64,000 nt of DNA from a virus. The notes below the pieces were generated by a model. That model was not told the DNA's origin. It searched no databases and saw only the letters and a list, made by a program, of their open reading frames with translations. The stretch lies in IMG/VR virus record IMGVR_UViG_3300045988_138952, positions 1 through 64,000 of that record, one strand, 5' to 3'. Below are positions 15,556 through 45,951 of the stretch, piece after piece (positions within the stretch are counted from its first letter, which is position 1; the number at the start of each line of letters is the position of its first letter). The position numbers and the translations under genes were made by a program.

Positions 15556-16017
15556 TCATATCTTGCCGTAATATCTGAACCATGCGCCCCACTTTCGCTC
15601 TTTCAGATAGTTCGGATTATCCTGGTTGAGTTTGGCTTCCATTTCAAAGGCGCTTGCATAATAGGCATTGGCGTTCACTTTCCCATCACCGATTTGTTTG
15701 TCCTTGAACAAATGATATATAAAACTGATAAACCATTCCACACCGTACATTATATAGTACAAGGTGGGAATAAGAAGCATCCACCACCAGCTCACATACA
15801 GAGAAAGGAAAACCGCCGGTATCGTAGCAATTTCCATACATTCCTTGAACTGGAGCTGATGAATACGCTCCTCACGTTGTGCCTCAATAGGCAAACTTGC
15901 ATGTTTGGTAATGATGAAACCAAAGAACATCATCGTACCGTAGTTCTTGAACAGAATGGCTTTAGCGAGCCAATTCTCATAAAATACTTTTACTCTCATA
16001 ATCAAAAAAGTAAACAC
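15556..16017 (-). CDS. multi-pass membrane protein (153 aa)
   Basis: Track ORF with several hydrophobic segments. Confidence 0.5.
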   Translation of the reverse strand: MFTFLIMRVKVFYENWLAKAILFKNYGTMMFFGFIITKHASLPIEAQREERIHQLQFKECMEIATIPAVFLSLYVSWWWMLLIPTLYYIMYGVEWFISFIYHLFKDKQIGDGKVNANAYYASAFEMEAKLNQDNPNYLKERKWGAWFRYYGKI

Positions 16018-16043
16018 TTTGTTATTTTATTAATATTATTGTT

Positions 16044-16504
16044 TTACGCATTCATTAGAACACAAACCAAACCGAAAATCCCTGTACTATCTGCAATATC
16101 AAATACACTATCGCCATTATTAACGACAGAATCAGTTATTTCTATAACAAAATTATTGGCTACAGACTCCTTTTTTGTAATAGCTCTTATTGGAGTATTA
16201 TCTTCATTAAAAAGACTAATAGCAGTAGGTGCTCTAAATGAATACCATTCGATATGTTGTTTTTTTATTTCAGTTCTTACTGAATCTCGATATAAATAAA
16301 TAGGGATACTACTAAGATTGCAAATAAGAACAAGTTGTACATTAATTTCTTTATGTACTAAATCATCTGCAAATTTGATATTATCAACAAGTTGTTTAAT
16401 ATCAAATTCTTTGCCAGCAATAAGTTGATTTCCAATACGAATACTCGTATTACTTATACCTACTCTTACCCCCCCCCGTTAATATCTTTCGTATCTTTAT
16501 CCAT
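16044..16504 (-). CDS. hypothetical protein requiring a -1 shift (or G10) at a G9 tract; OFF as assembled
   Basis: ATG 16504, 12 codons, G9, TAA at 16468-16466. The -1 frame from 16469 is open for 141 codons to stop 16046-16044. Confidence 0.5.
16469..16477 (-). repeat. G9 homopolymer (C9 on plus strand) followed directly by 0-frame TAA
   Basis: Counted directly: ..gatattaac GGGGGGGGG taagag.. Confidence 0.95.
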
Positions 16505-16515
16505 ATCAATTGTAT

Positions 16516-16898
16516 TTATTTCTTTATTACTAAAACTAAATAAGAACCATAACCAGTAAAATTAAATAATACATTATTTGCTTTTGCTGTAATAGTATCA
16601 TTAGCTTCTCCGTTATCGGCATCACCAAAACGAAAATCATATACAATATCTGTATTAGTAGTTATTTTCCAATTGGAATAACTATATAAAAAGGAAATAC
16701 TATTTGAAGCAACATTAACTGTATTATTATCTATATTAAAAGATTTAGTTTCTTGCGAATTATTAACTATAATACACGCAGAACCAGGGTCATTAAAGAA
16801 ACCATCTTCATAATTAACTGTTACCCCCCCCCTAATATCTCAGTATTACCAATAAACAATCCTGCATTATTAGAACCAACTTTTAAATTACTATCCAT
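16516..16898 (-). CDS. hypothetical protein requiring a -1 shift (or G10) at a G9 tract; OFF as assembled
   Basis: ATG 16898, 25 codons, G9, TAA at 16823-16821. The -1 frame from 16824 is open for 102 codons to stop 16518-16516. Confidence 0.5.
16824..16832 (-). repeat. G9 homopolymer (C9 on plus strand) followed directly by 0-frame TAA
   Basis: Counted directly: ..gagatatta GGGGGGGGG taacag.. Confidence 0.95.
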
Positions 16899-16910
16899 AT
16901 CTTTAAGTTT

Positions 16911-18656
16911 TTATTCAATTACAGCATACATTGTAGAATTATCTTTAGTACCGATACTATCATATTCAGTTTTAGTACGTTTAACAACTCTTTGTAGATT
17001 ATCGGAAGTGAGTATATCTTCTATAGAGGCAGCGCAGTCTTCATCATTGGGCATTAGTTTAAATCCCATACGCTTGGAAACAGGACCGTTATTAATATAA
17101 TAACTGATATTGCATTGCAAGTTATATTCTTCAGTTTCAGGGTCGTGAAAAGAGTAAATGCTACTAAGTTCAATACAATTATCTTTGCTATTATAACTGT
17201 GAAAATAATACTTGGTGTGGTTCGCTATAATATCCTGGATTATTTCTTTCAGATTATCAACCGAACCAAAGATGGTGTTTATAAGGTCTATTGCTTCCCT
17301 GTCTCTTTCGTTTTTATTGGTAACAAGATAAGTGCCCACAGAAACGTTAATAACCTTACCATAACCGATATTATTCGCATACTCCTTCGTCGCTATATTC
17401 GCCACTATTCCCGCAGGGGTTTCAGTAGTTGGACTAACACTTTGGTCGCCTGGTGCATATGTATCAGTATGAAGAATAACTTTTGCTTCATGAGAAGCAT
17501 AAAAGTGGTATTTGCCACCACCTCGTACAAAAACATAGCATGTATCAAAGTGGCTCAAATTACCTAAACCCCTCACAGGGTCTATATCTGCATGAACGAA
17601 ATCTGATAAGTATATAGTAATATTGCTATCACGATTAACGCCCCAAGCATTCGGAGCAAATTCCCAAATTTTACGAGTAGAAAAACCTCTCTCATGTTGA
17701 GACCATGACGGTTTTGTACCGCTATCTAATGATACCAGCACTTCTACTCGTATGTTCATTCTTTCTCCAGCAGCAATCGTAACCGGATACCATGTATTTT
17801 CATCCAACCCCGAAGTGTCAATCTCTGTAAGCTGCATCATGTAGCCAACACTACGAGCGCTTGAAATACTGTCATCGACATATTTCTTATCAGGAACTTC
17901 CGCCCAATCCCCATTCTTACGACCGTATGCCTTTCCATCAGTTGGCGCTTCGTCTATGCCGCCAATCTTCCCCTGGCTTACCCATTCACCGTTCACCCAT
18001 GCGTAGTAATCATAAGGAGCTTCCGTACCTACAGCCATGAACCCGTCAACTGCCGAACCATCAGGAACAGCGGATTTCAAGGCTTCAAGGGTGGCGTATT
18101 CGCCGGCTACACGGAAAGAGCTTCCCGGCTCGCCCTTGCAATAAATATCCGTCTTGTCGAAACTTTCCGTATTCTTGTTGTACACATAGACATAGTGGTC
18201 TTTGCCGATGTATGTCGGATTGTTGGCAATCTTTTCGGCTTCCTGGGCGGCTACATTAGCGGCTGTGGCTTTTTCTTCGGCATTGGATGCAGCGTTGTTT
18301 GCGGATTGGGTAGCCGCTTCTGCTCCTTCTTTAGCTGCGTTGACATCGGATGCAGCTTGTGCCGCCAGTCCTGCTTTCTCATTGGCGGAATTTGCGGCTG
18401 TCTGTGCTGCTGTGGCGTTGCTTTCTGCTTTAGTAGCGGCTGCATTTGCTTTATCGGCAGCTTCCAAAGCGGGAGCGGCTAACAATTCAAGTGGGGCACG
18501 TACAATCTTCGGCATGTCCTTCCCCTCTACTTCTTGATATGCGGGCAGAGATGTGATACCGTCCAAACTTTCCGCTTCCGGCACATCGCCAACACCTTGT
18601 GAACCTTTTTTTAGCTCATCTTCTATTTCTCGTAAATCCTGTTCTGTCCAAGCCAT
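16911..18656 (-). CDS. tail fibre protein (581 aa)
   Basis: Ala-rich coiled-coil repeat region (AADKANAAATKAESNATAAQTAANSANEKAG...) followed by a beta-rich C-terminal domain; position after the Tal-like gene. Confidence 0.7.
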   Translation of the reverse strand: MAWTEQDLREIEDELKKGSQGVGDVPEAESLDGITSLPAYQEVEGKDMPKIVRAPLELLAAPALEAADKANAAATKAESNATAAQTAANSANEKAGLAAQAASDVNAAKEGAEAATQSANNAASNAEEKATAANVAAQEAEKIANNPTYIGKDHYVYVYNKNTESFDKTDIYCKGEPGSSFRVAGEYATLEALKSAVPDGSAVDGFMAVGTEAPYDYYAWVNGEWVSQGKIGGIDEAPTDGKAYGRKNGDWAEVPDKKYVDDSISSARSVGYMMQLTEIDTSGLDENTWYPVTIAAGERMNIRVEVLVSLDSGTKPSWSQHERGFSTRKIWEFAPNAWGVNRDSNITIYLSDFVHADIDPVRGLGNLSHFDTCYVFVRGGGKYHFYASHEAKVILHTDTYAPGDQSVSPTTETPAGIVANIATKEYANNIGYGKVINVSVGTYLVTNKNERDREAIDLINTIFGSVDNLKEIIQDIIANHTKYYFHSYNSKDNCIELSSIYSFHDPETEEYNLQCNISYYINNGPVSKRMGFKLMPNDEDCAASIEDILTSDNLQRVVKRTKTEYDSIGTKDNSTMYAVIE

Positions 18657-18658
18657 AA

Positions 18659-18955
18659 TTATTCCTGTTTATCGGTTGCTTCTTCCGGTTGATTGTTGAT
18701 AGCACGATTGAGCGCGTCAATGAAGAAAGGTTTGCAAAAAGCATTTGCATGCTCTTGTATCAAGGATACTTCTTCATCGGTATACTCTGTCTCTTCATTG
18801 GAGTTGTATATCTTCAAAGCGAGTGCATGCGATGCGATACCGTTACCGTTCCGGTATAATACATTCGCAAAATTCTCTCTACAATCTATATTTTCACAAT
18901 GCTTACGGGTAATGTCCGTAGCAATCAGTAATTGTTTAAAATTTATCTTTTTCAT
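18659..18955 (-). CDS. hypothetical protein (98 aa)
   Basis: Track ORF between the Tal-like and fibre genes. Confidence 0.5.
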   Translation of the reverse strand: MKKINFKQLLIATDITRKHCENIDCRENFANVLYRNGNGIASHALALKIYNSNEETEYTDEEVSLIQEHANAFCKPFFIDALNRAINNQPEEATDKQE

Positions 18956-29304: not shown

Positions 29305-32300
29305 TTATATTTTGATTTTTCTACCACTTCTGTCTATTACTATACTTAGCATATCTCTAACTTCTTGTACTAAAGCAACGTTTGCTTCGGTATTTTGGGC
29401 ACTTCTTAACGTATTATTGGCTATCGCCCTCAATTGAGTAAGTTGTTGTTCGGCTATAACATTATATTTCGGAAGAATCTCGTTTCCCCACTTTTCAAGC
29501 AAAGCGCGTTTTACACTTACATCTGCACGAATACCGTTTATGTAAGAAGCTAAAATATTGGCGGTTTCTTCTGTAATGTTTTCTTGTATCCCTTTGGAAA
29601 GAGTGTTTGAAGCGCTTGTCTCTTCAAGGCTTATTCCCATTTTTTTTGCAGCAGCATTTAGATAATCCCATATTTTCTTTGAGTCTGATATTGTCCCTCG
29701 AAGGCTTCCAAGTTGCTGCATTAGTCCGGTAGCCTCTTGTTCCGTCAGATTTGTACCCCCAGCGGAACTGTCTGTAAATATACCTTTATCTCCAAACAGA
29801 TAATCTCTTAGCTTATTCATGGCAGGTTTTATGACATTCAGAGAAATCATCTCCTTTATGACATTGCGCATTATATCAGCCACCGTATCATCAAAAGCCT
29901 TTGCTGCATCTTCTCCGTTGGCGAACGCATTGACTAACGCTTCTGATATTTGGTCTGACCATCCCTTTAAGTCTATACCGAATTGTTCGCTTGCCAAATC
30001 TTCATAGAAATACTTGATTTGCTCGCCTAACTCGATATACTGCTGCTTGTAGTCCTCTATTTTAGAAGCATCCGAATCTTTCTTGTCTTGTTCCGCCTTC
30101 ATTTGCTTTTGCACCTCTTCTTGTTGCTTTTGAAGATTTGCAATCATCTCTTTGGATTGACTTTGGGTAACAGCACCCAATTGCCGTTCTATGACAGATT
30201 GAAGGTTCTTATAGTCGTTGGAAAGCTTTTTCACTTCCAGTTGCGAACGTTGGATTGCTTTATCCAGCTTCTTGTCATGGGCTTTGGCTATGCTTCCTAT
30301 TATTCCGGTAATACCGCTGACTACACCTGTAGCCCCTTGCATGATAGCCATCGGATTGCCGGAAGATATACCAGCGAAAAGGGTAGCTCCGCTTTGAGCT
30401 GTATTCAATAATCCACCCGCAACTTCTTGTACAGCGCTTAGAGTGTCTCCCATACTATCATTCCCTAAGGCATCAAATGCTGACCCTAAATCTCCCAAAG
30501 TGCCGATAAGAAGATTAGCCATGTCGACAATATCTCCAAAGCCTACTTGAACTTTATCGGAAGCCTCATTTTGTTCATCCTGCGCATCTGTTACTTCTTT
30601 TTCCGCATCTGCCAACGTTTTTAATTTTGGAGTTAATTTATCGACGACTTTAGCCTGATAAGATAAGCCGCCATCCGTTTTCTTGGTTTCCGTATGGCTC
30701 GTTTCAGAAACACCAGTAGTAACTTCACCGCCATCCTGGATAAACCCAAGTTCTTTTTGAGCCTTTTTCAGTTTTTCAGTGGCTTCCGCATACTCTTTTA
30801 TTCCGTCTGATAATGTCTTGAAAGGGTTTCTGCTTTCACTTTCGTCACGTAGCTTTTTTAATACATTGACAAGCTCTTTAAACTCGTTGACTTTTAGACT
30901 TTGCCCGGTCGTATTTTTAAACTCTTCCAGGTTCTTGATTAGCCTGCTAAGAGTTGCAGAAGAAAGTCTGTCAAGGTCGTCAAAGGTCTTAGCCCAGTCT
31001 TCCGAACTCTTGAATTGTTCAAATTTGGTAGATGCAGCATCTTCGCTCGCTTTCTTTTTCCTTTGTGCTATAAGTCTGTCGGTCGCTTCTTCGCCTAATT
31101 GACCTCTTTGGCTTTCAATATCTGCCAAGTCTTTTTGAAGATTACGTTCAATATCCTTTATCCTTTGGGCATAATCTTTATAATCCTCAATCATGCCTAA
31201 AAGGTTTTCAAGGCTTTCTGAACGCATTTTCTTACTTTCCTCGTTGATTGATTGGTATAGTTTCAGAATTACTCCTTCTCCAAACTGCTTCTTTACATCA
31301 TCCTCTTTCATGGCAAGGACATCTGTAACGGAGAATTTACTTCCTGTATTTTCAAGCGCTTTGGAAAGTTGGTTGCGCAAATCATCTACTACACTTTTGA
31401 ATGAGACCTCTCCGCCGAAAGCGATGTTCATGGAAAGAGATTTGTTGCCGGAAGCATTGAATAGCTTCTTATATAAATCCCACTTTTCTCCGGTTTGGGA
31501 AACGTACTTCTCTATCTCCTTTAAGGCATTATCTACTTCTTTCTTCGCACTGTCAATTCCCGCCTTGTCAATCTTGACACCAAGAGAAATGTATAAATCT
31601 TCCTGCTTCTCTTTGCTTCGGTCTAACTGCCCTTGAATGTATTTGTAAGCCTTGCTTGGGTCTTTTAAGTCCAAATTGACCCCGTTCTTATCAAAGATAG
31701 GGGCAAATTCAGAAATGCCCTTCACCCTTTGGGATGCGACTTCTTCTCCTTCTATCTTTCTCCATTTCTCATAGCTGGAAACGGCTTTATCTATGAGGTC
31801 GGTACGGGCTTCCCATTGTTCGGCAATAGGGTCTTTCGTGTTTTGGGTCTCTTTGGTTACACGCCCGAATGTTTTTAGTATTTCATCTGTAGCATTCTTT
31901 AACAGCTTGGCTTTATCTATACTTTTACGAGTTTCTTCATTCCATTCGCCCTCTTTTTTAGTCCATTCGCTAAGAGTAGAGGACGCATCCTCATTAGCAC
32001 CGATTATATTTTCTATGTATTTTTGCAGACCACCTTCTGCATCAGGCTTTAGCCTTTCTATACCGAATTTTTCATACAATTCGGTCGCTTTCTTGAACCA
32101 GGCAGAATTCTTGTCATCTTTCTTTATCTTGTAAGTTGAATAATTTTCTAATGCGTCATTCAGTGTTTTTTGAGCTTGCGATAAAACCTCTTCTTGTTTT
32201 TTTATATCTTCATCTAAGGACTCTATGACATTCTCATACCCGTCCAGTGATTGATAATATTCTCTGCGAGATTTCAATCTGTTAAGTTCTCTTTGAGCTT

Positions 32301-34152
32301 CATTTCTATTATTGGTCGCGCCGATTACAAGCCCTGCGCTTTTGACTTTTTCTCTTTCTTTTGATGCAGATAACACTTTTTGGATGGCTTGATATTCCCC
32401 TTCTAAAAGAAATTGTTCAAATTTCATATTCTCAAAGAGAGAGGGATATATTTTTTGAAGGTTTAGATATGCCCTTCTTTGAGCATCAATCCCGTTTGTT
32501 TTATCGAATATTCGAGAAATATATCCTTTAGCCTTACTTTCCTCTTCTTTAATCTTCTCTATGTTTTTTGAGAACTCAATATTTAGTTTTTTTGTTTTTT
32601 CAGCAACTGTTTCAACTTTTTCTTGGAATACAGTCAATGTTGTAACTATAGCGCCTAATGTGGTTATCCAAAATACCCACGGATTGACTTTCATTGCTGA
32701 GTTAAGTGCCCATTGTGCTACTGCGGCTGCTTTGGTGACTTTGACTCCTTTGTTTAACCATGTATAATACGCTTGCATTTGACTGATTGCAAAAGAAGAC
32801 TTTTGTGCTACATTTACAGCTATCACAGCCGTTTTATAAGAGCCATAAATTCCTACAAGTCTACCAAGTATATCTGCGACAGCCTCCCAATGTTTCATTA
32901 AATCAGTAAGCAGCTCTAAACTATCTGAAAGTACACCGCTATTGCCTTCCGCAATGTCAGCCATCATGACATCCCATGCGTCCTGCAAGTTGCTCCATTT
33001 GCCAGCAAGGCTTTCTGCAAGAGCTTCCTGCATGTTGTAGAATTTGCCGCCTTCATCGGTCAGCTCCCAAAGAACATCTTTCACCATGCCGAAGCTGACC
33101 TCTTTCCGGCTGATTTTATCGAATACGTCTCCGGCGGAAGTTACCACTCCCGTAAGCTTAGTAAACCGTTTCGCCAACTCGTCCACCAACGGAATACCAG
33201 CCTCGGTAAACTGCCTCAATTCCTGCCCACGGAGAAAAGCTGCACTGCGCACCTGCCCGTACGCCAATATGATACGTCCCATATCGACACCCACACCTGC
33301 GGAAATGTCGGCAAGTCGTTTGGTCGTATCGTAAAGCTCTTCATACGGAATGCTGTATGCGGAAAGTTGCTTGGTGTATGAAGCCAGTTCTTTAAACTGA
33401 AACGGAGAGACAACCGCTAAATCCTTAATGCGGTTGAATATGGTTTCCGCCTTCATACTATCTCCAAGAATGGAGGTAAGGGCAATGTGTTGTTTCTGAA
33501 ACTCTCCGCCAATAGTATATAATCCCCTTACAAAACGCTCTATGGTGTATATGGAATACACATTGGCGATTTGATTTTTCAATTCCCTGGCTATCCGTGA
33601 TTGAGAAGATAGAGCCGTGTTTTCCTTTGTCATGGCGGCATTGTGTGTGCCGGAAGCTCTTGCAGCCTGCATCCGAGCATTGGTGAGTCTTTGTTCGGCG
33701 AGCGCTGCCCTTTCTGCCATTTTTGCCTGAATATCAAGAATGCGTTGCTGTCTTACATCGCTCGCTGTTGTGTTATATTTATATCCAGCTTTTTGTAATG
33801 CCTGTTTGACGGCATCACTGACTTTAGCCTTATCTACGACTATGTTTATTTTGTATTTTTTCTTATTTACAGCACTGGATATACTATCTCTAAGAGAAGC
33901 ATCGTCTATTTTCAGTTTTGCTTTAACTTCGGAGGGAATGTTAATTTTATTGACCCCTACATTGACTTTGAATATCTTACTTTTAAGTGCATTGTCTATC
34001 GACTCTCTAATAATTTGTCTGTCTACCTTAACTCCCAATTTAGTGTTAAGTTTGACTTGCTTTTCAACGAGTTTCTTTTTTATCTGTTCATAATCCTGCT
34101 CCGTGCAGTCTTTCAAGTGAACGCTAAAATTGAGTGAACCTAAGTCTGCCAT
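29305..34152 (-). CDS. tail tape measure protein (1615 aa)
   Basis: Length, long helical/coiled-coil composition with hydrophobic core segments, position after the chaperone pair. Confidence 0.9.
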   Translation of the reverse strand: MADLGSLNFSVHLKDCTEQDYEQIKKKLVEKQVKLNTKLGVKVDRQIIRESIDNALKSKIFKVNVGVNKINIPSEVKAKLKIDDASLRDSISSAVNKKKYKINIVVDKAKVSDAVKQALQKAGYKYNTTASDVRQQRILDIQAKMAERAALAEQRLTNARMQAARASGTHNAAMTKENTALSSQSRIARELKNQIANVYSIYTIERFVRGLYTIGGEFQKQHIALTSILGDSMKAETIFNRIKDLAVVSPFQFKELASYTKQLSAYSIPYEELYDTTKRLADISAGVGVDMGRIILAYGQVRSAAFLRGQELRQFTEAGIPLVDELAKRFTKLTGVVTSAGDVFDKISRKEVSFGMVKDVLWELTDEGGKFYNMQEALAESLAGKWSNLQDAWDVMMADIAEGNSGVLSDSLELLTDLMKHWEAVADILGRLVGIYGSYKTAVIAVNVAQKSSFAISQMQAYYTWLNKGVKVTKAAAVAQWALNSAMKVNPWVFWITTLGAIVTTLTVFQEKVETVAEKTKKLNIEFSKNIEKIKEEESKAKGYISRIFDKTNGIDAQRRAYLNLQKIYPSLFENMKFEQFLLEGEYQAIQKVLSASKEREKVKSAGLVIGATNNRNEAQRELNRLKSRREYYQSLDGYENVIESLDEDIKKQEEVLSQAQKTLNDALENYSTYKIKKDDKNSAWFKKATELYEKFGIERLKPDAEGGLQKYIENIIGANEDASSTLSEWTKKEGEWNEETRKSIDKAKLLKNATDEILKTFGRVTKETQNTKDPIAEQWEARTDLIDKAVSSYEKWRKIEGEEVASQRVKGISEFAPIFDKNGVNLDLKDPSKAYKYIQGQLDRSKEKQEDLYISLGVKIDKAGIDSAKKEVDNALKEIEKYVSQTGEKWDLYKKLFNASGNKSLSMNIAFGGEVSFKSVVDDLRNQLSKALENTGSKFSVTDVLAMKEDDVKKQFGEGVILKLYQSINEESKKMRSESLENLLGMIEDYKDYAQRIKDIERNLQKDLADIESQRGQLGEEATDRLIAQRKKKASEDAASTKFEQFKSSEDWAKTFDDLDRLSSATLSRLIKNLEEFKNTTGQSLKVNEFKELVNVLKKLRDESESRNPFKTLSDGIKEYAEATEKLKKAQKELGFIQDGGEVTTGVSETSHTETKKTDGGLSYQAKVVDKLTPKLKTLADAEKEVTDAQDEQNEASDKVQVGFGDIVDMANLLIGTLGDLGSAFDALGNDSMGDTLSAVQEVAGGLLNTAQSGATLFAGISSGNPMAIMQGATGVVSGITGIIGSIAKAHDKKLDKAIQRSQLEVKKLSNDYKNLQSVIERQLGAVTQSQSKEMIANLQKQQEEVQKQMKAEQDKKDSDASKIEDYKQQYIELGEQIKYFYEDLASEQFGIDLKGWSDQISEALVNAFANGEDAAKAFDDTVADIMRNVIKEMISLNVIKPAMNKLRDYLFGDKGIFTDSSAGGTNLTEQEATGLMQQLGSLRGTISDSKKIWDYLNAAAKKMGISLEETSASNTLSKGIQENITEETANILASYINGIRADVSVKRALLEKWGNEILPKYNVIAEQQLTQLRAIANNTLRSAQNTEANVALVQEVRDMLSIVIDRSGRKIKI

Positions 34153-34153
34153 G

Positions 34154-34605
34154 TTAATTATTGTTTTGCGCCTTTTTGATAGCGTTAATGCCGTTTACCA
34201 TAAAATCATTGAGGGAAATTCTTTGTCCTTTCATTTCCTGCTCTTTTCTCTTTTCTTCCCACTTCCTTTTTAAATCTTCCATTTCTTTGGCTGTGTGCGT
34301 TTTTTGTTCTGTGTCTGCTTTGTCATACACTACAATCGGGGCGTCACACATAAAAAGTTCATATTGGGCGCATGTCAATACCCAGTCCATATGCCAGTTG
34401 GGGATATTAACCATGCCCCAAAGAAGAATTAACGGTCGTGTCAGTTCCGGATGTTTTTCTCCGTTTGCAAATGCTGCTCCTGCCGAAGTTCTTGAAGGAT
34501 ACGTTCTGCTTCCTTTCTCGTCATCGTCATTATCGTGTCTCTCATTCCGGTCAGTAATGTGAAAGCATTCAAGTATTCCAGTCTTTGAGATTCCACTTTT
34601 TTTTT
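34154..34605 (-). CDS. tail assembly chaperone -1 frameshift extension (GT-like product)
   Basis: A AAA AAA is in phase with the G frame at 34605-34597. The -1 frame is open by hand translation from 34597 into track ORF 34154-34414. Confidence 0.6.
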
Positions 34606-34917
34606 ACCTATAAAAAGTATTCCGTACAATTCGTCATCTGTGTATTTTTTCCATAGCATACGCCAGTATATCCAATGGAAAAGTCTTATCTTCCACCAAT
34701 TATTCAGAATAATGAGAGAGGCACATTTGGCAGTAACTTCATCCTCGCTTTTGCAGGAATGTAAGACATGGGTCAATTTTCGTATTGTTCCACGGTGCAG
34801 CCATTTTATGCCGAACTTTTTTCCTCTTATCGTAATATAATCTATGCTGTTCTCCAGCACGTCGTCGAGTGTTTTCTGCTCTGCTGTGGTAGGTTGATTT
34901 ATTGTTTTATCGTTCAT
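34441..34917 (-). CDS. tail assembly chaperone (G-like)
   Basis: Position between the major tail protein and tape measure; contains an A9 slippery run. Confidence 0.65.
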   Translation of the reverse strand: MNDKTINQPTTAEQKTLDDVLENSIDYITIRGKKFGIKWLHRGTIRKLTHVLHSCKSEDEVTAKCASLIILNNWWKIRLFHWIYWRMLWKKYTDDELYGILFIGKKKVESQRLEYLNAFTLLTGMRDTIMTMTRKEAERILQELRQEQHLQTEKNIRN

Positions 34918-34980: not shown

Positions 34981-35247
34981 TTAAATCAAAGAACCGTCCT
35001 GGGTAACTTCCACCGCACTGAACTCATTGGCGGTGAATACGCTGACTGTAGCAGTTCTTTTTGCTCCGCTATTCTCGTCGACTTTGACCGTCACCACTTT
35101 CCCGCTAACCGAGGTTTTGCACCATGTTTCCGTTGATGAAGCAGAGACAGAGCTTTCCTTGGTTGTTGCGGTAATGGTTTTCCCTGTATTATCTGCCGCG
35201 CTGGTAAAAGACAGGGACGCTGGAGCTACGGTCAGTCGGCTTTTTTT
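34981..35247 (-). CDS. BACON/Ig-like domain reached by -1 frameshift from the major tail protein
   Basis: No start codon. -1 frame after A AAA AAA (35247-35241) reads SRLTVAPASLSFTSAADNTGKTITATTKESSVSASSTETWCKTSVSGKVVTVKVDENSGAKRTATVSVFTANEFSAVEVTQDG. Confidence 0.6.
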   Translation of the reverse strand, partial: KKSRLTVAPASLSFTSAADNTGKTITATTKESSVSASSTETWCKTSVSGKVVTVKVDENSGAKRTATVSVFTANEFSAVEVTQDGSLI

Positions 35248-35801
35248 GTCAAGAAAGCGATATTATCTTCGGAAGAGGAGCCGGACGAAGCACCATCTTC
35301 AAGTTCAATAGTTCCGCTAAGCGCAAAAGCGAATGGGGTAGTGGACGCATTCTCAAACAAGGGGCGTGCGTAAACGGCCATTCTTTTTACAAGCAGACAT
35401 TTTTCTCCGTCGTCACTTATAAGCGCAAATCCTACGTTCAGTTTCTTGCTGTTTAGCACAGCAGAGAATCCCTTGAATTGCTGGTTGTTGATAGTCGCTT
35501 GCGCAATTTCAGTGGTTTTCCCAAGAAAATATTCTACCAATTCCTTGCTTACACTTGGAACGGTAGCAGCGAAAGTAATATCTCCTGCTGTACTGGTGAC
35601 AGCCCAATCTGCTTGCAGACCGTGCACCTTTGTACGGTTTAATGTCGGTTCTGCTTGGGACAAGGAAAGGGTATCTACGGTAACGGGCAAATCAAAATCC
35701 GGAGTTACCGTGGCAAAATTTGCAATGCCACCCTTTACCAACATAATGGATGAAAGACCGCTAAATACATCTTTCAATTCCTGCTTTGTTTTCATTGCCA
35801 T
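35232..35801 (-). CDS. major tail protein
   Basis: 189 aa, position upstream of the chaperone pair; ends with a slippery A AAA AAA. Confidence 0.7.
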   Translation of the reverse strand: MAMKTKQELKDVFSGLSSIMLVKGGIANFATVTPDFDLPVTVDTLSLSQAEPTLNRTKVHGLQADWAVTSTAGDITFAATVPSVSKELVEYFLGKTTEIAQATINNQQFKGFSAVLNSKKLNVGFALISDDGEKCLLVKRMAVYARPLFENASTTPFAFALSGTIELEDGASSGSSSEDNIAFLTKKAD

Positions 35802-35832: not shown

Positions 35833-36237
35833 TTACTTTATCACAAGGTCAGCCCTTATCAATGTTGCGCTGAACCCTAATCCGTCATTTCCTTTCAAGG
35901 TCAATTTGGGGTTTGAGGCACTTATGAAATTGTCGCTGATGGGGAATAGGGAAAGAAAATCTCCTACAATAGTGTCCATTTGTTCCAAATCTTCCGCACC
36001 TCCCTTTTTCTGTCTGACATACACTTCAATGGCGCAATAGGTACGGATATTTCCAAATCCGCTGCCATAGGTCATGGAAGACAACAAGCCGGGCAATGAC
36101 ACCACAATGAAATTATCCATTTGCTTAGGCACAGCAGCGGGACGGTCATTTGTGAACACATTCTCACTTACTGTCTTTGCTGCGTCAAACAATGATTTAA
36201 GCGCGTCTTTGTATTTAAAATCCTGTTCGTACCCCAT
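35833..36237 (-). CDS. head-tail joining / tail completion protein (by position)
   Basis: 134 aa, between the capsid and tail genes. Confidence 0.45.
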   Translation of the reverse strand: MGYEQDFKYKDALKSLFDAAKTVSENVFTNDRPAAVPKQMDNFIVVSLPGLLSSMTYGSGFGNIRTYCAIEVYVRQKKGGAEDLEQMDTIVGDFLSLFPISDNFISASNPKLTLKGNDGLGFSATLIRADLVIK

Positions 36238-36238
36238 A

Positions 36239-36781
36239 TCATTTCATTGGTTTAAAGGTCATTTTAGCAATGCTTTCCGCGTAATCAAATGTATCTGACA
36301 ATACATTTAACCCCTTCTTTGACTCCAAGTAGTTAGAATATTCCGTACCTGTACACATCACTAATCCTATGCCGTCACTTGGAGTTTTATATGCTTTGAG
36401 GAAATTTACAGAAGTGGTTAAACCGTACTCCCCGTTGGTGTCAACCAAGTTGTATTTTTTTATGGGAATAAACTTACCACTTTCGTAACTTTGGACCATT
36501 ATCACGCCAATACCGTCTCCTCTGCTAAGCTTGGGGCGGGTGGGATTTTTTAATCCTTGTGTCACGACGGCGGTAATTATACGAGATAACCCACCTCTAT
36601 AATAAATTCCAACAGCTAATGAAGTTAGAGTATTTCCGGTTACATTATGGTACTTGGCTGATACTACTCCGTCTTGCAGAAGTCTGATTCCGATTTCTGT
36701 TATTCTATCCAGCAAATATTCATCAATGATATTTCTCATCTTTTTTTTGCCTTCTTCCAAGACTTTAGCATTATCTCCCAT
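36239..36781 (-). CDS. head-tail connector protein (by position)
   Basis: 180 aa, tight spacing. Confidence 0.45.
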   Translation of the reverse strand: MGDNAKVLEEGKKKMRNIIDEYLLDRITEIGIRLLQDGVVSAKYHNVTGNTLTSLAVGIYYRGGLSRIITAVVTQGLKNPTRPKLSRGDGIGVIMVQSYESGKFIPIKKYNLVDTNGEYGLTTSVNFLKAYKTPSDGIGLVMCTGTEYSNYLESKKGLNVLSDTFDYAESIAKMTFKPMK

Positions 36782-36785
36782 TTCC

Positions 36786-37109
36786 CTAATTCTTAGCCAG
36801 ATTGAAATACAGCGTTGTTCCCATTTCCGTAGGATAACAATCCGTTACTACGCATGATTCAAAACTTCCTCCGTAATCGGTAACATCCACAAGGTCTCCC
36901 GCAATGATACCCTTCACAAGTCCAGGAATGTCTATTGCATAATCACTCTTTATGACATTACTTTTTGTAAATGTCCTAAGACTTGTGCTTCCGTACTTGT
37001 TGCATTTCCCTACATACAATACGGTCTCGTTCCCTTCGTCAAAAGATGTTTCTCCGGAAATACGATACACTTTGCATGTATGCGGAAAACGTGGATTATT
37101 TACTTTCAT
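36786..37109 (-). CDS. head-tail connector protein (by position)
   Basis: 107 aa, overlapping the start of the neighbouring gene. Confidence 0.45.
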   Translation of the reverse strand: MKVNNPRFPHTCKVYRISGETSFDEGNETVLYVGKCNKYGSTSLRTFTKSNVIKSDYAIDIPGLVKGIIAGDLVDVTDYGGSFESCVVTDCYPTEMGTTLYFNLAKN

Positions 37110-37507
37110 AGCGGATACCTTTTATTCATGTTCATACCCAAGTTGACAATTCTGACAGATGATTTACGGACGTTCTCTCCATACAATGCGTATATGTCAT
37201 TTGCCATTTGCCGAAGGTTACGTTTGTCATAGGCAGAGCTTTGTGTACCACCCTCCTTGTGCTTCCATACACCATTGGCATCCTCTACGCTTCCAGTTAC
37301 GCTCGGTGTACTTGCGCACCACATATAAAGGTCTGCCCGGCACAAGTCTTTCTGGCGTTTTTCCAACGTGCTGACATCCGTCCCCGGTGCAATTCCCCTG
37401 TCAATCAGTATGGTGGAAATAGCACTGTCCGTAACTTCAAAACCGACACAACCACGGAGATATTCCTCTATGGTAGTGCCAGTATTTGTATTTTGAGAAT
37501 CCTTCAT
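37106..37507 (-). CDS. head-tail connector protein (by position)
   Basis: 133 aa, directly after the capsid gene. Confidence 0.45.
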   Translation of the reverse strand: MKDSQNTNTGTTIEEYLRGCVGFEVTDSAISTILIDRGIAPGTDVSTLEKRQKDLCRADLYMWCASTPSVTGSVEDANGVWKHKEGGTQSSAYDKRNLRQMANDIYALYGENVRKSSVRIVNLGMNMNKRYPL

Positions 37508-37509
37508 GG

Positions 37510-38715
37510 TTATTTACCTTTAATGTTCAAGTAGTAGAACCAGCGAACCTTATTAGGAACAACCAATCCGGTCACTTCTGATTTGATTACCTGCGTCATG
37601 GTTTCATCATTGAATACCTGACGTATCAGAGTGCGGCCGCCGTCATACAATGCCGTACGGGCACCCGGTGTTTCCATGAAAATAGGACGTCCACATTGTA
37701 CATCACCCAGGTCTTCATTTGGAACATATGCCAATACTCCCTCTTCAAAGCTTTGCAAATTCTTGTATTGTATAGCTTTGGAAGATTTGTCATATTTCTC
37801 CACTACGGATATTGAATCGACAATTCTGATTTCAGCACCGATACGCGTTTCAATGAAAGTTTTGATTGTTTCATCGGGGACAAGATTAGCAAATGCCAAC
37901 TGCATGCCTTTATCGGAAATATCCGGGCGTGTCGCAACTGTGTACATTTGGCGGAAATACGGAAGGTTAATCAAATCCTCAAAGGTCGTCTTGGAGCATT
38001 CCCAGTGACCAGCAGGGGCAAAATCCTTTTCTTGGGAATCGCGTCTTACCTGCCTCATGACTTTTATCGGGTCTATTGTAGTACCCAAAGCTTCTTTCTG
38101 CACCGCTTCGCTTTCCGGCTTCTTATACCAGATAGAATCCTTGATATTCTTTTTAGGCACACCGAAATCTATAGTCAATGCAATGCCAAGCGGGTTGTTA
38201 GCTGCGTCAATGATTAGCTTACCTTTGTTGGATACAACTTGATTTCGTTGGTATAGGAATGTATTGTAGTTACCACCAAGTAAGCTGTCCACTCCATTAA
38301 ACAGAAGCTCCATTATTGTAGACTCAATTTCCGGAGTGGTACTGCCGATGGCATCCATCAGCATCATTTTTTCTCTTAGGATTTTGCGGCTCAGTACAAT
38401 CTCATGCTTGAAGGTTGGCAATCCACCCATTTGCAGGGACATTCCGTCTGTAGATTTGGTTGCACCATCACTGTCAATATCCACATAGGTAGCCAGCGTG
38501 TATGCACGGACTGTTGCTTCTATCTGCTCATATGTGGGATTCAGAGGAATATTAGGATTTAACGGGAAACCCATTTGGGAGAACGTTTGTTCCGCATTGT
38601 ATTTTTCGGCAAACATGTCATTAATCCATGCTTCCAGCGGTTTATTCCCAGTATATCCCAATGCTGCAAGACCTTTCCCTACAATGTCGTAAAATTCTTT
38701 GTTTCTTGTGTACAT
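37510..38715 (-). CDS. major capsid protein (lambda gpE-like class suspected)
   Basis: 401 aa, preceded by decoration-like and scaffold-like genes. Confidence 0.75.
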   Translation of the reverse strand: MYTRNKEFYDIVGKGLAALGYTGNKPLEAWINDMFAEKYNAEQTFSQMGFPLNPNIPLNPTYEQIEATVRAYTLATYVDIDSDGATKSTDGMSLQMGGLPTFKHEIVLSRKILREKMMLMDAIGSTTPEIESTIMELLFNGVDSLLGGNYNTFLYQRNQVVSNKGKLIIDAANNPLGIALTIDFGVPKKNIKDSIWYKKPESEAVQKEALGTTIDPIKVMRQVRRDSQEKDFAPAGHWECSKTTFEDLINLPYFRQMYTVATRPDISDKGMQLAFANLVPDETIKTFIETRIGAEIRIVDSISVVEKYDKSSKAIQYKNLQSFEEGVLAYVPNEDLGDVQCGRPIFMETPGARTALYDGGRTLIRQVFNDETMTQVIKSEVTGLVVPNKVRWFYYLNIKGK

Positions 38716-38730
38716 ATTATTCTCCTTTCT

Positions 38731-39450
38731 TTATTCGTCAGATTCACGCACAAATTCAATCATAGGCAGCTGTGCTTCTACCGATTTGGGAATGCCACCA
38801 CCGAACACCCTGTCTGCGTAAATTCTGCCTGCGCGTACAACTGCGCATGTTGCAAGGATACAGCCTTCAGGGATACATACGTCTTCAAATACAAGGCCGT
38901 TGACATCGGTTAGCTTTCCGCTGGCGGGAACTCCTTTGACAGTTTCCTCAATATCTCCCGTTACTCCGGTATTTCCTGGAATAAACATGTACGCGTAAAG
39001 TTGCGCAGCGGTTTTTTGTGTGAAAGTCACAGTAGCCCCACTACGTTTTACATCCCATTCTGCAAAAGAAGATTTTGCTCCTTCGATTTTGGTAGCTACC
39101 AGTTCTGGGGTACTTTCTGATGCGCTTGTTACGGCAACCGAATAGCTTTTTCCGCCTAACACAATAGACAAATCCCCGTTTCCGGATGCCTTTTTAGTGA
39201 TAGTAAGCGTCACTACTGCCTTTACATCAGTCACTCCATCTGCTGTAATTACCTCTACCTGTTTGCCTGCTCCATTGAATTTTACCATTGTGCCGGCATG
39301 TATAATATCACCAGGCTTTAATCCCATTCCGGCGACATCAATCATACCACCACCCTGATATAATTCTCTTACTCTTGACCAAACAGGAAAATTTCCGCCA
39401 AATCCCGACTGGGATTGACTGATAGTGTTGAAAGTTCCTAATTGTCTCAT
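38731..39450 (-). CDS. head decoration-like protein with inserted beta domain
   Basis: Position directly before the capsid gene; Gly-rich N-terminus; tentative. Confidence 0.4.
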   Translation of the reverse strand: MRQLGTFNTISQSQSGFGGNFPVWSRVRELYQGGGMIDVAGMGLKPGDIIHAGTMVKFNGAGKQVEVITADGVTDVKAVVTLTITKKASGNGDLSIVLGGKSYSVAVTSASESTPELVATKIEGAKSSFAEWDVKRSGATVTFTQKTAAQLYAYMFIPGNTGVTGDIEETVKGVPASGKLTDVNGLVFEDVCIPEGCILATCAVVRAGRIYADRVFGGGIPKSVEAQLPMIEFVRESDE

Positions 39451-39471
39451 TCTTTGTCTGTTTTAATGTGT

Positions 39472-40134
39472 TTATTGTTTTCGAGGAAGTTTTCCTTGCG
39501 CTCTTAGCCGGTCTTTGAATGCTTCACGGCGGCTTTTTGCCTGTTCTTCTCCGGTTTCTGCATATTGGTTGATACTTGGGGAAGCGCCATTCCCGAAAAT
39601 TGCCTTGTATCTTTTTTCATAATTGCGTTTGGCGCAACTGACAATTTCTTCCACTTCCATATCTTTGGTAATTTTCACGTCAGATATGGCGATATTCAGG
39701 ATTTCATCGTTACAGATATTTTTGCCCCCGTTTTCAATTTGAGATTTCAACAAGTCCATAGACTGGACTTTTAAGTCATTGATTGACGCGGCGTTTTTCT
39801 CCACCTCTCTCTCTTCCTTCAAAAGCAAAATCTCATTTTCCATTTCCTTTAGCTTGTCGGCAAGGACGTTATCTCCTGCTCCTTCTCCTGAGTCAGGAGA
39901 ACTCTGTTGAGGTTTGTAGTTTTTCTTAAAACTCTCAACTTGTGTTGCGACATCGTGATTGTACTGCCCTTGCATTCCTTGAAGAAAAGATGTCGCCTTG
40001 CTATAATAAGCGTCATCAGGCTCCACCCCTTCTGCTACCGGATTCAATTCTATGTACTTCATTAATGTCTGTGACGAAAGACTGGTTTGTCCTAATCTGG
40101 TCGTCAGTTCGGATAAGATTTGTTCTTTCTCCAT
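39472..40134 (-). CDS. scaffolding protein
   Basis: 220 aa, helical and charged, first gene of the capsid block. Confidence 0.55.
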   Translation of the reverse strand: MEKEQILSELTTRLGQTSLSSQTLMKYIELNPVAEGVEPDDAYYSKATSFLQGMQGQYNHDVATQVESFKKNYKPQQSSPDSGEGAGDNVLADKLKEMENEILLLKEEREVEKNAASINDLKVQSMDLLKSQIENGGKNICNDEILNIAISDVKITKDMEVEEIVSCAKRNYEKRYKAIFGNGASPSINQYAETGEEQAKSRREAFKDRLRAQGKLPRKQ

Positions 40135-40157
40135 CGTGTTTATTTAGTTTGTGTTAT

Positions 40158-40203
40158 AAAAAAAAAGAGCCTATCAGTGCTTTGTGCACTAATAAGCTCT
40201 TAG
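40158..40203 (-). terminator. conserved late-leader terminator element, copy 2
   Basis: Minus strand CAAGCCTAAGAGCTTATTAGTGCacaaaGCACTGATAGGCTCTTTTTTTTT, 24 nt upstream of the scaffold ATG. Confidence 0.6.
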
Positions 40204-40222
40204 GCTTGCATATGTAAAATTG

Positions 40223-40399
40223 CTATTCTTCTATTCTGACGCTGATAAAATTACGACATCTTCGGCATACAGTCCTAAACAATACGCTACCGTGTATTAT
40301 TTTTACATCGGTCAACTTTTGCCCGCACACCGGACATGTTACAAAATTCCCTTTTTCGCTGGTCTGTTTTTCATCCAGCTTAGCGTCTATCTTTATCAT
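40223..40399 (-). CDS. Com-like zinc-ribbon protein (58 aa, below track cutoff)
   Basis: CPVCGQKL-x18-CRRCRNF, two CxxC pairs in the layout of the Mu Com family. Confidence 0.55.
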   Translation of the reverse strand: MIKIDAKLDEKQTSEKGNFVTCPVCGQKLTDVKIIHGSVLFRTVCRRCRNFISVRIEE

Positions 40400-40418
40400 A
40401 TCACATGATTTAGTATTG

Positions 40419-40426
40419 CAAATATA
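40419..40426 (-). promoter_or_regulatory. -7 promoter box TATATTTG (minus strand)
   Basis: Plus strand caaatata, 20 nt upstream of the Com-like ATG. Confidence 0.45.
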
Positions 40427-40500
40427 TAGTATATTTTCTAAAATACAATGCTTTATATGTATTTTTATATGAGAAATATTAGAAAATTTATAATAAATCG

Positions 40501-40508
40501 TATATTTG
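40501..40508 (+). promoter_or_regulatory. -7 promoter box TATATTTG for the terminase operon
   Basis: Exact TAnnTTTG in the divergent intergenic region. Confidence 0.5.
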
Positions 40509-40538
40509 CATTATATATAACTCATAGAGCTGTGATTC

Positions 40539-40586
40539 AAGCCGGAGTGTGCGGATTTATACTGCATACGCCGGCTTATTTTTTTT
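40539..40586 (+). terminator. promoter-proximal intrinsic terminator abutting the terminase start codon
   Basis: AAGCCGG..25 nt..CCGGCTT, then A and T8; ATG at 40587. Confidence 0.6.
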
Positions 40587-42200
40587 ATGGAACACGACAA
40601 GATTGTATATACGAAAAAGGGGGAGGGTGTATTCAGTTATGAATACATAGACAGGTTGCGTAATTTGAAAAATGATTTCAATGTTATAGCTCAATCCGGC
40701 GGGCAGGAGAACTCATTAGCTTCCGATGCCGACATTGTTATTATGGGAGGGAATCGTGGCGGTTCAAAAACATTTACTTTATTAATGGAATCCTTGCCAG
40801 ACATTAAAAATCCACGTTTTAATGCCGTTCTTCTGCGTAACGAGAAAGATGACCTTAGAGATATGATTAACACGTCGTATCTTATTTACTCCCAATTTGG
40901 AACTTATAACCGTTCTATATCGGATATGACTTGGAATTTTGGAGAAAACGCTGGAAAACTGTGGTTTTCTTATTTTGCTGATAATTTTGAGGATTTCAAG
41001 AAGCGCTTTCAAGGTAAACAGTTCTGTTATATCGGTATAGACGAAATAACCCATTGTTCTTATGACAAGTTTAAATACCTTATCACTTGCAACCGTAACG
41101 CTTATGGTATTAAAAACCGTTTTTGGGGTACTTGTAATCCGGACCCGGATAGCTGGGTGCGCGTTTTTATAGATTGGTGGATAGGAGAGGATGGGAATCC
41201 TATACCAGAACGCGATGGAAAGAAAAGATATTGTTTTATGGATGGAGATTCTCCCAATAATATATTTTGGGGAGACACGCCAGAAGAGGTATATGAACAA
41301 TGTAAATCCATCATAGACCCTCTTTGGAATGATGCTTACAAAAAATTGGGATTTAATAAGAAAACAATGTTTGTCAAGTCAGTCGTCTTTATACGGGCAC
41401 GTTTGGAGGATAATATCAAATTGATTGAGGCTGACTCAAATTATGCGGCTAATCTTGCCCAGCAGGATGAAGAATCCCGCGCTCGCGACCTCGAAGGAAA
41501 TTGGAATTTTAAAGCGGCTGGAGACGATATTCTTAAAATCGAACACATGGAGCGGTTCTTCAACAACTCCGCCCAATATGGAGATAATAAGCGAAGGGTA
41601 TCATGTGATATTGCATATGAAGGTGGAGATAATCTTGTCTTGTGGCTTTGGATTGGGAACCATATAGAGGACGTATATGTAAGTCGGGATAACTCCAAGC
41701 GGACGGAAGAGTGCGTCGCATATAAGTTGCGTGAATGGGGAGTCCTGGAGAAAGACTTTGTTTTTGACTTGAATGGACCTGGACAGGATTTTAAGGGCAA
41801 ATTCCCAGACGCGGTCAAGTTTAATAATATGGCAGCTCCTATCCCAACGACAAAAGCTGACGAACAATCTATAAAATATATCTATTCTTCCCTGAAATCA
41901 CAATGCGCTGATATTCTCGTTAAGAAGATTAAGAATGATGAAATTTCGATTAACCCCGATTTGTTGTCGCGTAAGTTTTCAGGAAACGGATATTCAGATA
42001 TGACACTTTATAATATCCTGATGAAAGAACGCAAAGCCATCCGGGATGCAGACACAGATAAAGGCTTCTCTTTAATTAAAAAGGAAGTGATGAAAAAGTA
42101 CGTCGGCCATTCTCCCGACTTTATAGAGGCTATGATTTACAGACAGATTTTTGATATAAGAAAACAACACACTAAACCAAAAGGATTATGGAGAATATAA
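40587..42200 (+). CDS. terL: terminase large subunit
   Basis: Walker A-like GGNRGGSKT, Walker B IGIDEITH, C-terminal nuclease-like CDIAYEGGDN. Confidence 0.9.
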   Translation: MEHDKIVYTKKGEGVFSYEYIDRLRNLKNDFNVIAQSGGQENSLASDADIVIMGGNRGGSKTFTLLMESLPDIKNPRFNAVLLRNEKDDLRDMINTSYLIYSQFGTYNRSISDMTWNFGENAGKLWFSYFADNFEDFKKRFQGKQFCYIGIDEITHCSYDKFKYLITCNRNAYGIKNRFWGTCNPDPDSWVRVFIDWWIGEDGNPIPERDGKKRYCFMDGDSPNNIFWGDTPEEVYEQCKSIIDPLWNDAYKKLGFNKKTMFVKSVVFIRARLEDNIKLIEADSNYAANLAQQDEESRARDLEGNWNFKAAGDDILKIEHMERFFNNSAQYGDNKRRVSCDIAYEGGDNLVLWLWIGNHIEDVYVSRDNSKRTEECVAYKLREWGVLEKDFVFDLNGPGQDFKGKFPDAVKFNNMAAPIPTTKADEQSIKYIYSSLKSQCADILVKKIKNDEISINPDLLSRKFSGNGYSDMTLYNILMKERKAIRDADTDKGFSLIKKEVMKKYVGHSPDFIEAMIYRQIFDIRKQHTKPKGLWRI

Positions 42201-43672: not shown

Positions 43673-43725
43673 ATATTCGCCACAGATAATGGAGTTGAAC
43701 ATAATCCGGAAGGAGATGACAAGCA

Positions 43726-44508: not shown

Positions 44509-44525
44509 TTAAAAATCATAATAAT

Positions 44526-45083: not shown

Positions 45084-45184
45084 TACCCGGCTTAAGAAGT
45101 GTATTTCTGCTATATCAATTCGTGTAAGTATTTACTGCCGCATTTTGCGATAAAATATGTTCTTCCCGAACTCATTTTCCATAG

Positions 45185-45923: not shown

Positions 45924-45951
45924 AGTTTTGATATTTAATTAAGTAAATCTG

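Follow-up and report, generated by a model that had tools for sequence, protein, structure and literature searches.

What are two small, neighbouring phage genes doing with the same string of nine guanines (G9) near their starts, each of which leads straight into a stop codon? The question is raised by positions 1 to 64,000 of the IMG/VR virus record IMGVR_UViG_3300045988_138952, a 64,000-nucleotide stretch of DNA that is referred to here as the window. On its minus strand, right behind the stop of a tail-fibre gene (16911), lie two genes, A and B. Each opens with an ATG, runs into G9 and meets TAA, and the remainder of the gene continues in another reading frame. Judging from comparative sequence data, the two runs are probably hypermutable simple-sequence tracts, that is, contingency loci that would subject the genes to phase variation at the level of the DNA. 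Tracts of this kind (G9 OFF, G10 ON) had been one of two possibilities named in an original prediction made from the letters of the window; the other was obligatory programmed frameshifting or transcriptional slippage. The features of the two genes are as follows, where ON denotes an in-frame and OFF a truncated gene.

16821..16898, minus strand: 5' segment of gene A, with ATG16898, the N-terminal module MDSNLKVGSNNAGLFIGNTEIL, Gly3 and, in the G9 allele, TAA.
16824..16832, minus strand: polyG tract A, G9, OFF in the window; predicted to be ON at G7, G10 or G13.
16516..16824, minus strand: body of gene A, 102 codons plus stop (16518-16516), encoding a variable C-terminal beta-sandwich domain.
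16507..16509, minus strand: TTG in a second frame, 5 nucleotides (nt) upstream of ATG16504; ATG in other lineages.
16466..16504, minus strand: 5' segment of gene B, with ATG16504, MDKDTKDIN, Gly3 and, in the G9 allele, TAA.
16469..16477, minus strand: polyG tract B, G9, OFF in the window; predicted to be ON from ATG16504 at G7 or G10.
16044..16469, minus strand: body of gene B, 141 codons plus stop (16046-16044), with the motif VRVGISNTSIRIGNQLIAGKEF followed by a variable beta-sandwich domain.

From ATG16898, the 0 frame of gene A gives an open reading frame (ORF) of 25 codons, MDSNLKVGSNNAGLFIGNTEILGGG, which ends with G9 and then TAA (16823-16821). The corresponding ORF of gene B, from ATG16504, has 12 codons, MDKDTKDINGGG, and ends in the same way. 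Tract A occupies codons 23-25 of its gene and tract B codons 10-12. The frame of the gene A body begins at G16824 and is joined to its ATG only by the addition of one G or the loss of two; with one more G the ORF has 127 amino acids (aa). The body frame of gene B begins at G16469, and there one more G gives an ORF of 153 aa. Across the junctions the predicted peptides are ..NTEILGG(G)VTVNYEDGFFNDPGSACIIVNNSQETK for gene A and ..DINGG(G)VR / VGISNTSIR for gene B. The arrangement had been predicted correctly: the coordinates and the codon counts (25 and 102 for A, 12 and 141 for B) were reproduced, and only the spacing between the stop codon of A and the ATG of B, given as 12 nt, measures 11. 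ATG16898 itself is 12 nt past the fibre stop codon (16911-16913), a placement shared by all relatives.

A scan of the body frame of gene B found no ATG, GTG or TTG of its own, so an upstream ATG combined with a change of frame is the sole route by which the body can be expressed. Upstream of tract B there may be a choice of starts. TTG16509 is a possible alternative start, which would make G8 and G11 alleles productive (LIWIKIRKILTGGVRVG..). In six relatives (L003, L018, L020, L023, L080, L128) the second-frame start reads ATGATATGG, and two database gene calls (P0009 and P0012) begin at this codon. With two starts in two frames ahead of the tract, two of the three length classes could yield a full-length protein with the conserved motif. 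Gene A also has an internal ATG out of frame (AATGCAGGA). That frame ends in the window at a TAG to which the tract contributes its first G, whereas P0174 and L025 are among the relatives in which it remains open.

Runs such as these are not expected by chance. Tracts A and B are the only two runs of G or C of at least 8 in the 64 kb of the window, which agrees with the earlier impression, gained by eye, that they are its longest G/C homopolymers. Under a first-order Markov model 0.11 runs of 9 or more are expected; two are observed, 355 nt apart. They lie in the most AT-rich segment, as had also been remarked, where the fraction of guanine plus cytosine (GC) is 0.25-0.33 against about 0.40 for the genome. 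At this local composition (70% AT), the chance that the bodies would stay open is about 7e-5 for A and about 2e-6 for B. The window has no general homopolymer problem: its runs of at least 7 A or T inside long ORFs are all in frame except for two (34597-34605 and 35241-35247), and ORFs would be cut short by an insertion or deletion in any of the remaining runs. The same concentration of runs is found in the 88.9-kb genome of Bacteroides phage BS162P1 (OP172706; host B. salyersiae), whose sole G/C runs of at least 8 are three tracts in the equivalent place.

Relatives were found by pattern scans of viral and metagenome contigs and by a look-up with a flanking gene, and megablast led to BS162P1. 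A first degenerate scan of viral contigs gave mostly chance matches. The same was true of a 17-mer scan of metagenome contigs, with 8 loci carrying the tract context among the matches listed. All of the comparative data are consensus assemblies. Together they contain 19 non-redundant loci, on at least three backbones, in which polyG tracts occupy the same gene positions with lengths of 5-11. Comparison with related phages bears out the tract, although the TAA that follows it in the window is not kept.

Both ON and OFF alleles occur among these 19 loci. The tracts of the first gene range from G5 to G11, with 8 ON and 11 OFF. Those of the second range from G6 to G11: 9 are ON from the main ATG, 7 are ON only via the second-frame start, and 3, including the window, are OFF in both frames. 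Tract A appears in relatives with identical flanks as G7 (five loci), G9 and G10. The leader of gene B is kept in 21 loci, and in every OFF allele examined the ORFs are intact apart from the tract.

The tracts evolve much more quickly than the sequence around them. In the region common to the window-type group, which extends from the end of the fibre gene across gene A as far as the N-terminus of B (637-640 nt), all indel columns fall within the tracts. Contigs that are 0-1 single-nucleotide polymorphisms (SNPs) apart in 637 nt have tract lengths of 7, 9 or 10 and of 8 or 11. One pair (L019 and L064) has 0 SNPs in 637 nt and differs in both tracts (9 against 10, and 11 against 8); compared with four other contigs, L019 has 1 SNP each and again both tracts differ. 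Proteins tell the same story. P0155 (..EILGGVTV.., 126 aa), on 101 contigs, and P0125 (..EILGGGVTV.., 127 aa), on 156 contigs, are identical except for one Gly, as expected for G7 and G10 alleles. There are also 128-aa forms of protein A (EILRGGGV), in which an Arg codon interrupts the run. In-frame G7 and G10 alleles of the same protein are each common, and at the level of comparative genomics the prediction of hypermutable tracts has held up well.

BS162P1 provides an example from an isolate. It has three small genes 3' of its fibre gene. The first shares the N-terminal 22 aa of gene A and has a wholly different C-terminal domain; its G9 is in frame through an extra A ahead of the tract. The second has the leader of gene B with G9 out of frame, and for this reason it has been annotated from an internal ATG (105 aa). 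Another altered tract is found in L080, where the run of gene B is interrupted (G5AG4), has a total length of 10 and is in frame. Both this allele and the first gene of BS162P1 look fixed in one state, as would be expected near a mutable tract.

In gene 3 of BS162P1, a G8 tract precedes the ATG by 10 nt (L001 6932-6939). Third genes of three-gene cassettes in general (L001, L003, L020, L023, L128, L180, L194) have a run of G7-G10 at 10-11 nt upstream of the ATG. Between this run and the ATG all three frames are closed, so a change of length cannot fuse ORFs there; it would alter the stop of a short upstream ORF relative to the start, or the spacing of the leader. Relatives without the run have TGGAGA at that site.

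The number of genes in the cassette and the way in which glycines are encoded go together. Fourteen sampled relatives have a single accessory gene between the fibre and membrane-protein genes. Ten of these (L218-L227) were found via a neighbouring 98-aa protein, a query independent of the tract, and four (L230-L233) via the N-terminal pattern of gene A. Runs of at least 6 G are absent from the cassette in all 14 (0/14), whereas G runs are present in 19/19 loci with two or three genes. One single-gene locus (L227) writes ..EILGGGV.. as TTG GGT GGT GGA GTA, and others have mixed codons such as GGT GAG AGG GGA or GGA GGT GAG. The association fits a model in which multi-gene cassettes would hold switchable alternatives and a sole copy would be kept constitutive.

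Which proteins would be switched? In alignments they share a common build: an N-terminal strand motif xLKVGxxNxGxxIGNxxI, a linker of Gly2-3 and a C-terminal domain of about 100 aa. The G run is placed after the motif in gene A and before it in gene B. AlphaFold2 models the C-terminal domains of A and B as beta-sandwiches with a predicted local distance difference test score of about 90; the N-termini are weak. Homologues are 94-97% identical over the full length for gene A and 88-92% for gene B. The N-terminal module of gene A is identical in the first gene of BS162P1 and in many database proteins with unrelated C-terminal domains, and at least five unrelated domain types are joined to it (P0184, P0188, P0199, P0203, P0211). 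The same C-terminal domains are, in turn, found behind different N-terminal modules.

Neither protein matched Pfam or PHROGs, and a profile search against PDB sequences gave nothing below E = 0.18. Foldseek searches with the models against PDB and BFVD returned only generic sandwiches (template modelling score below 0.5) or uncharacterised phage proteins. The N-terminal motif was not found elsewhere in the window, the fibre included. Position and modularity suggest that the N-terminal module may dock on the conserved fibre end and that the variable domain may be a distal adhesin or a cap. A dedicated chaperone would be expected to co-vary with its fibre; the pairing of gene-1 domains with distal fibre domains is not strict, as a given fibre end is found with several gene-1 types and vice versa.

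Gene B contains a further homopolymer, an A7 run (16260-16266, minus strand, codons EIKKQH). Many database homologues with the B-type domain are 94-aa truncations (P0090-P0106, e.g. ..EIKNNISNGIHLEY..), which fit an A6 allele of this run. The A7 run would then be a second mutable site, mostly in lineages without polyG.

The proposed mechanism can be described in a few steps. Slipped-strand mispairing during replication of the phage DNA would add or remove Gs, and each change of length would reversibly toggle one of the two tandem genes between the in-frame and the truncated state. Gene A would be ON at G7 and G10. Gene B would be ON at these lengths from ATG16504 and possibly at G8 and G11 from the second-frame start. 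The window, with G9 in both tracts, would represent the one length class that is OFF for both genes. A lysate would be a stochastic mix of virions with different accessory proteins, a form of bet-hedging against variable Bacteroides surfaces.

The original prediction had also seen one identical switch context, GATATTA..G9-TAA, at both genes. This does not hold. The two genes do not read GATATTA in one and the same frame (GAG ATA TTA in A, GAT ATT AAC in B); the sequence varies in relatives of A, and as a candidate signal the combination GATATTA..TAA was rejected, being kept neither in frame nor in relatives. The TAA is a by-product of the Gly-Gly-Gly-Val codons of the ON frame (GGG GGG GGG GTA A..), which are here read a base too soon. 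In relatives the tract is followed by different letters, namely G9-TACAG, Gn-ATATGA and G9-TTAAGG. Thus, the shared context contains no conserved signal.

Alternatively, the DNA may stay at G9 and the frame be restored during expression. In such programmed recoding, a -1 slip of the ribosome on G GGG GGG or stuttering of the RNA polymerase would yield a fixed, low fraction of full-length protein. The heptamer was correctly noted to be in phase in both genes and, all three of its positions being G, it is formally a slippery site before a 0-frame stop; the combination of heptamer and in-phase stop is, however, not conserved, and the context after the tract varies between relatives. G9 OFF alleles of gene B are seen in three independent genomes (the window, BS162P1 and L025), and in two (the window and L025) both genes are OFF in the main frame, which would call for leaky expression if the proteins are essential. 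But the relation of the frames is not constant: OFF alleles need one G more in some genomes (the window, L180) and one G fewer in others (L025, L194, L229, L080), and directly fused ORFs are common. The 0-frame products have just 25 and 12 aa, and folding of the 90 nt after the tracts gave no advantage over shuffled sequence (z = -0.88 and -0.27). Transcriptional slippage would be marked by a conserved out-of-frame arrangement that obliges the polymerase to stutter, and the arrangement varies in relatives. Heptamers in which Y is G are poor shifters, and bacterial transcriptional slippage has mainly been described for A/T runs. A promoter scan that used the sigma-70 consensus was uninformative for promoters of the Bacteroides type. 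Because lengths vary in near-identical contigs, OFF alleles lie in both wrong frames, RNA structure is lacking and the G5AG4 allele is in frame, the evidence favours phase variation over obligatory -1 frameshifting, and recoding as the normal route of expression is unlikely. Leaky, low-level slippage on G9 may matter for genomes with both genes OFF, such as the window; it does not seem to be a designed mechanism.

Two further explanations attribute the runs to error or to decay. Long G runs are error-prone on several sequencing platforms and both window tracts are exactly one base short, so the true tracts could be in frame (e.g. G10), with G9 and much of the spread in consensus assemblies being homopolymer miscalls. 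A spread of 5-11 is far wider than one base in either direction, however, and the in-frame alleles G7 and G10 each occur on over 100 contigs. There are alleles with an interrupted run or a compensating flank, the A/T runs of at least 7 in long ORFs of the window are in frame but for two that look like genuine recoding sites, and isolate BS162P1 repeats the pattern: of its three tracts, one is in the ON state, another is OFF and the third precedes a start codon. An artefact is very unlikely. The genes might instead be dispensable paralogues on the way to being lost, with the frameshifts at G runs as ordinary inactivating mutations. About half of the gene-1 alleles are indeed OFF, short tracts (G5) in some alleles would revert slowly, and truncated variants of 93-94 aa are present in the database. 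Decay would hardly leave ORFs intact apart from the tract in every OFF allele examined, at 70% AT, nor would it confine inactivation mostly to one site per gene; moreover, the homopolymer is kept across lineages though synonymous coding without a homopolymer exists elsewhere. The probability of this explanation is minimal.

Several points nevertheless weigh against phase variation. The tract lengths come from consensus assemblies, and miscalled consensus bases in long G runs could account for part of the variation in length between metagenomes. The window has neither gene ON. Every single-gene relative has an accessory protein, which suggests that one such protein is essential; if so, a genome of this kind needs either leaky slippage or a minority subpopulation that is ON. 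The association of G runs with multi-gene cassettes lacks phylogenetic independence, and the searches with proteins A and B (Pfam, PHROGs, PDB sequences, and Foldseek against PDB and BFVD) gave no informative match.

The two genes are part of a larger unit, which is bounded as follows.

16911..18656, minus strand: tail-fibre gene, 581 aa, matching tail-fibre PHROG families, with PF24243 Phage_tail_C just under the cut-off.
15556..15999, minus strand: conserved gene whose hydrophobic product is probably a membrane protein, at the downstream boundary of the cassette; 92% aa identity to BS162P1.
15900..17400: AT-rich island, a putative exchangeable host-recognition cassette of the distal fibre part and the accessory genes.
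18659-18955: gene for a 98-aa protein, upstream of the tail fibre.

The C-terminal third of the tail fibre lies inside the AT-rich island, and its last 20 aa or so (..TEYDSIGTKDNSTMYAVIE) are kept across cassette variants. Beyond the membrane-protein gene, on its downstream side, lie genes for a 215-aa protein (a holin in some relatives), a 59-aa protein and an M15 endolysin. The phage group to which the window belongs is very widespread: the exact 98-aa protein is indexed in 2327 blocks of a public collection of assemblies, contigs of 200-300 kb among them.

The same cassette is found in phages that have little else in common. BS162P1 and the window share only the cassette, the flanking membrane-protein gene and an HNH endonuclease gene. 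A third group of contigs (L003, L020, L023, L128, L180) is unlike both backbones outside the cassette. The cassette and the flanking membrane-protein gene (15556-17400 of the window) have 81-93% nt identity among the window, BS162P1 (L216/L217) and the L003-type contigs, and the GC fraction of the cassette is 0.30 against 0.40 in both the window and BS162P1. Positions 36000-48000 of the window gave no megablast match among 50,697 phage records. These patterns point to a host-recognition module that has been exchanged horizontally across at least three backbones. BS162P1 also contains G7 and C7 runs 19 nt apart (L216 56448-56480), which form the perfect GC-rich stem of a terminator-like hairpin.

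Similar switches have been described in other phages. The main example can be found in the Fletchervirus phages of Campylobacter, whose receptor-binding-protein genes contain hypermutable polyG tracts of 7-11 (Sorensen et al. 2021, Cell Rep 35:109214, as related in PMC12633550 and PMC10579305). As far as these accounts go, the two systems agree in having G runs in phage genes of the host-recognition region, in the toggling of the frame between ON and OFF by run length, and in the proposed purpose, phenotypic diversity against a host with a variable surface. They differ in several respects. The present phages have other backbones and hosts of another phylum (Bacteroidota, human gut). Their tracts fall within the codons of the Gly linker, close to the 5' end of accessory genes for small proteins (127-160 aa), and not in the receptor-binding protein itself. 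Two or three tandem paralogues are gated separately, in an AT-rich cassette that moves between backbones otherwise alike only next to it, and the system is known so far from its sequence.

In coliphages T2 and T4, contingency loci are formed by homopolymers that mutate reversibly by polymerase slippage and create heterogeneous populations (Gomez, Barrick, Waters 2025, bioRxiv, PMC12633550). Reversible slippage in phage genes and bet-hedging are common to both cases; there, however, the repeats are mostly runs of 6 or more that are spread across many functional classes (PMC12633550). Repeats are under-represented in the tail-fibre genes of BASEL coliphages (PMC12633550), unlike the G7-G11 tracts described here, which are the only such runs of the genome and are confined to a cassette next to the fibre. 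BPP-1 and PB1-like phages are further cases with polyG tracts, and T2/T4 have short repeats (PMC12633550). The literature searched gave no description of polyG tracts in Bacteroides phages, in keeping with the original prediction, and full-text searches on switching by polyG or homopolymers likewise turned up nothing for Bacteroides or 'Flandersviridae' phages. The principle of the switch is already known; the novelty lies in the host clade, the gene family, the tandem and individually gated paralogues, the location in linker codons and the mobile cassette.

Bacterial phase-variable genes (Campylobacter cj1421/cj1422, Neisseria, Haemophilus) resemble genes A and B in their 5'-proximal polyG or polyC tract with three length classes, in their natural ON and OFF alleles and in their synonymous homopolymeric coding, with the difference that the element here is viral. 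The presumed Bacteroides hosts mostly phase-vary by invertible promoters rather than by repeat tracts.

Fibre accessory proteins offer another parallel. The Tfa chaperones of Mu and P2, the gp38 adhesin of T-even phages and the 'chaperone caps' of Alteromonas (PMC10579305) are likewise encoded by a small gene directly 3' of the fibre gene, consist of one conserved and one variable half, and are exchanged together with the fibre tip. Proteins A and B have no sequence or fold similarity to Tfa or gp38 that could be found in Pfam, PHROGs, PDB or by Foldseek, and their variable domains do not strictly co-vary with the distal domain of the fibre.

A slippery run of the homopolymer type in a tail-module gene, behind which a second frame stays open, is also known from the G/GT -1 frameshift of tail assembly chaperones (Xu, Hendrix and Duda 2004). 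That system conserves its out-of-frame arrangement and requires both products, whereas here fused alleles are common and the short products have 12-25 aa. The window may even contain its own example of the G/GT type. An A9 run (34597-34605, minus strand) lies at codon 104 of a 158-aa gene (34441-34917), in the sequence GGT AAA AAA AAA GTG, and a -1 shift leads to a 254-aa product that ends just ahead of the tape measure gene (29305-34152, PF20155 TMP_3). This site is a good candidate for a programmed frameshift of the G/GT type at the classical position, and as such would be an internal contrast to the polyG tracts. An A7 run (35241-35247, minus strand, ACA AAA AAA GCC) is found near the stop of a 189-aa tail-module gene (35232-35801). 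Here the -1 frame adds about 85 aa (SRLTVAPASLSFTSAADNTGKTITATT..VEVTQDGSLI) without a Pfam match, in what looks like an immunoglobulin-like C-terminal addition by frameshifting.

If the tracts in genes A and B are contingency loci, a wider model can be tentatively outlined, although it is rather less likely to be right than wrong in its full form. The AT-rich island would be a mobile 'multi-adhesin' cassette, in which each alternative fibre-tip protein has its own polyG switch and gene B has three states, owing to the two starts in two frames ahead of its tract. Such a cassette would give combinatorial, heritable and yet reversible variation of host range to abundant Bacteroides phages of the human gut, would counter the phase-variable capsules of the hosts, and would spread by recombination between backbones with little else in common. 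The tracts do adjoin a receptor-binding gene, as had been pointed out, and a host-range role of the gated genes is plausible.

The finding has practical consequences. PolyG tracts lead annotation pipelines to miss or truncate genes, as in the second gene of BS162P1 (105 aa). Subpopulations are hidden in consensus genomes, and they may determine the host range in phage therapy or in microbiome editing. The isolate BS162P1, which grows on B. salyersiae and carries the same cassette, makes the idea of the switch directly testable. It is an open and active question how virulent phages of the gut persist together with Bacteroides hosts whose capsules and surface proteins keep switching. If the tracts are true switches, an abundant group of gut phages would have a built-in generator of virion heterogeneity at the tip with which the host is recognised.

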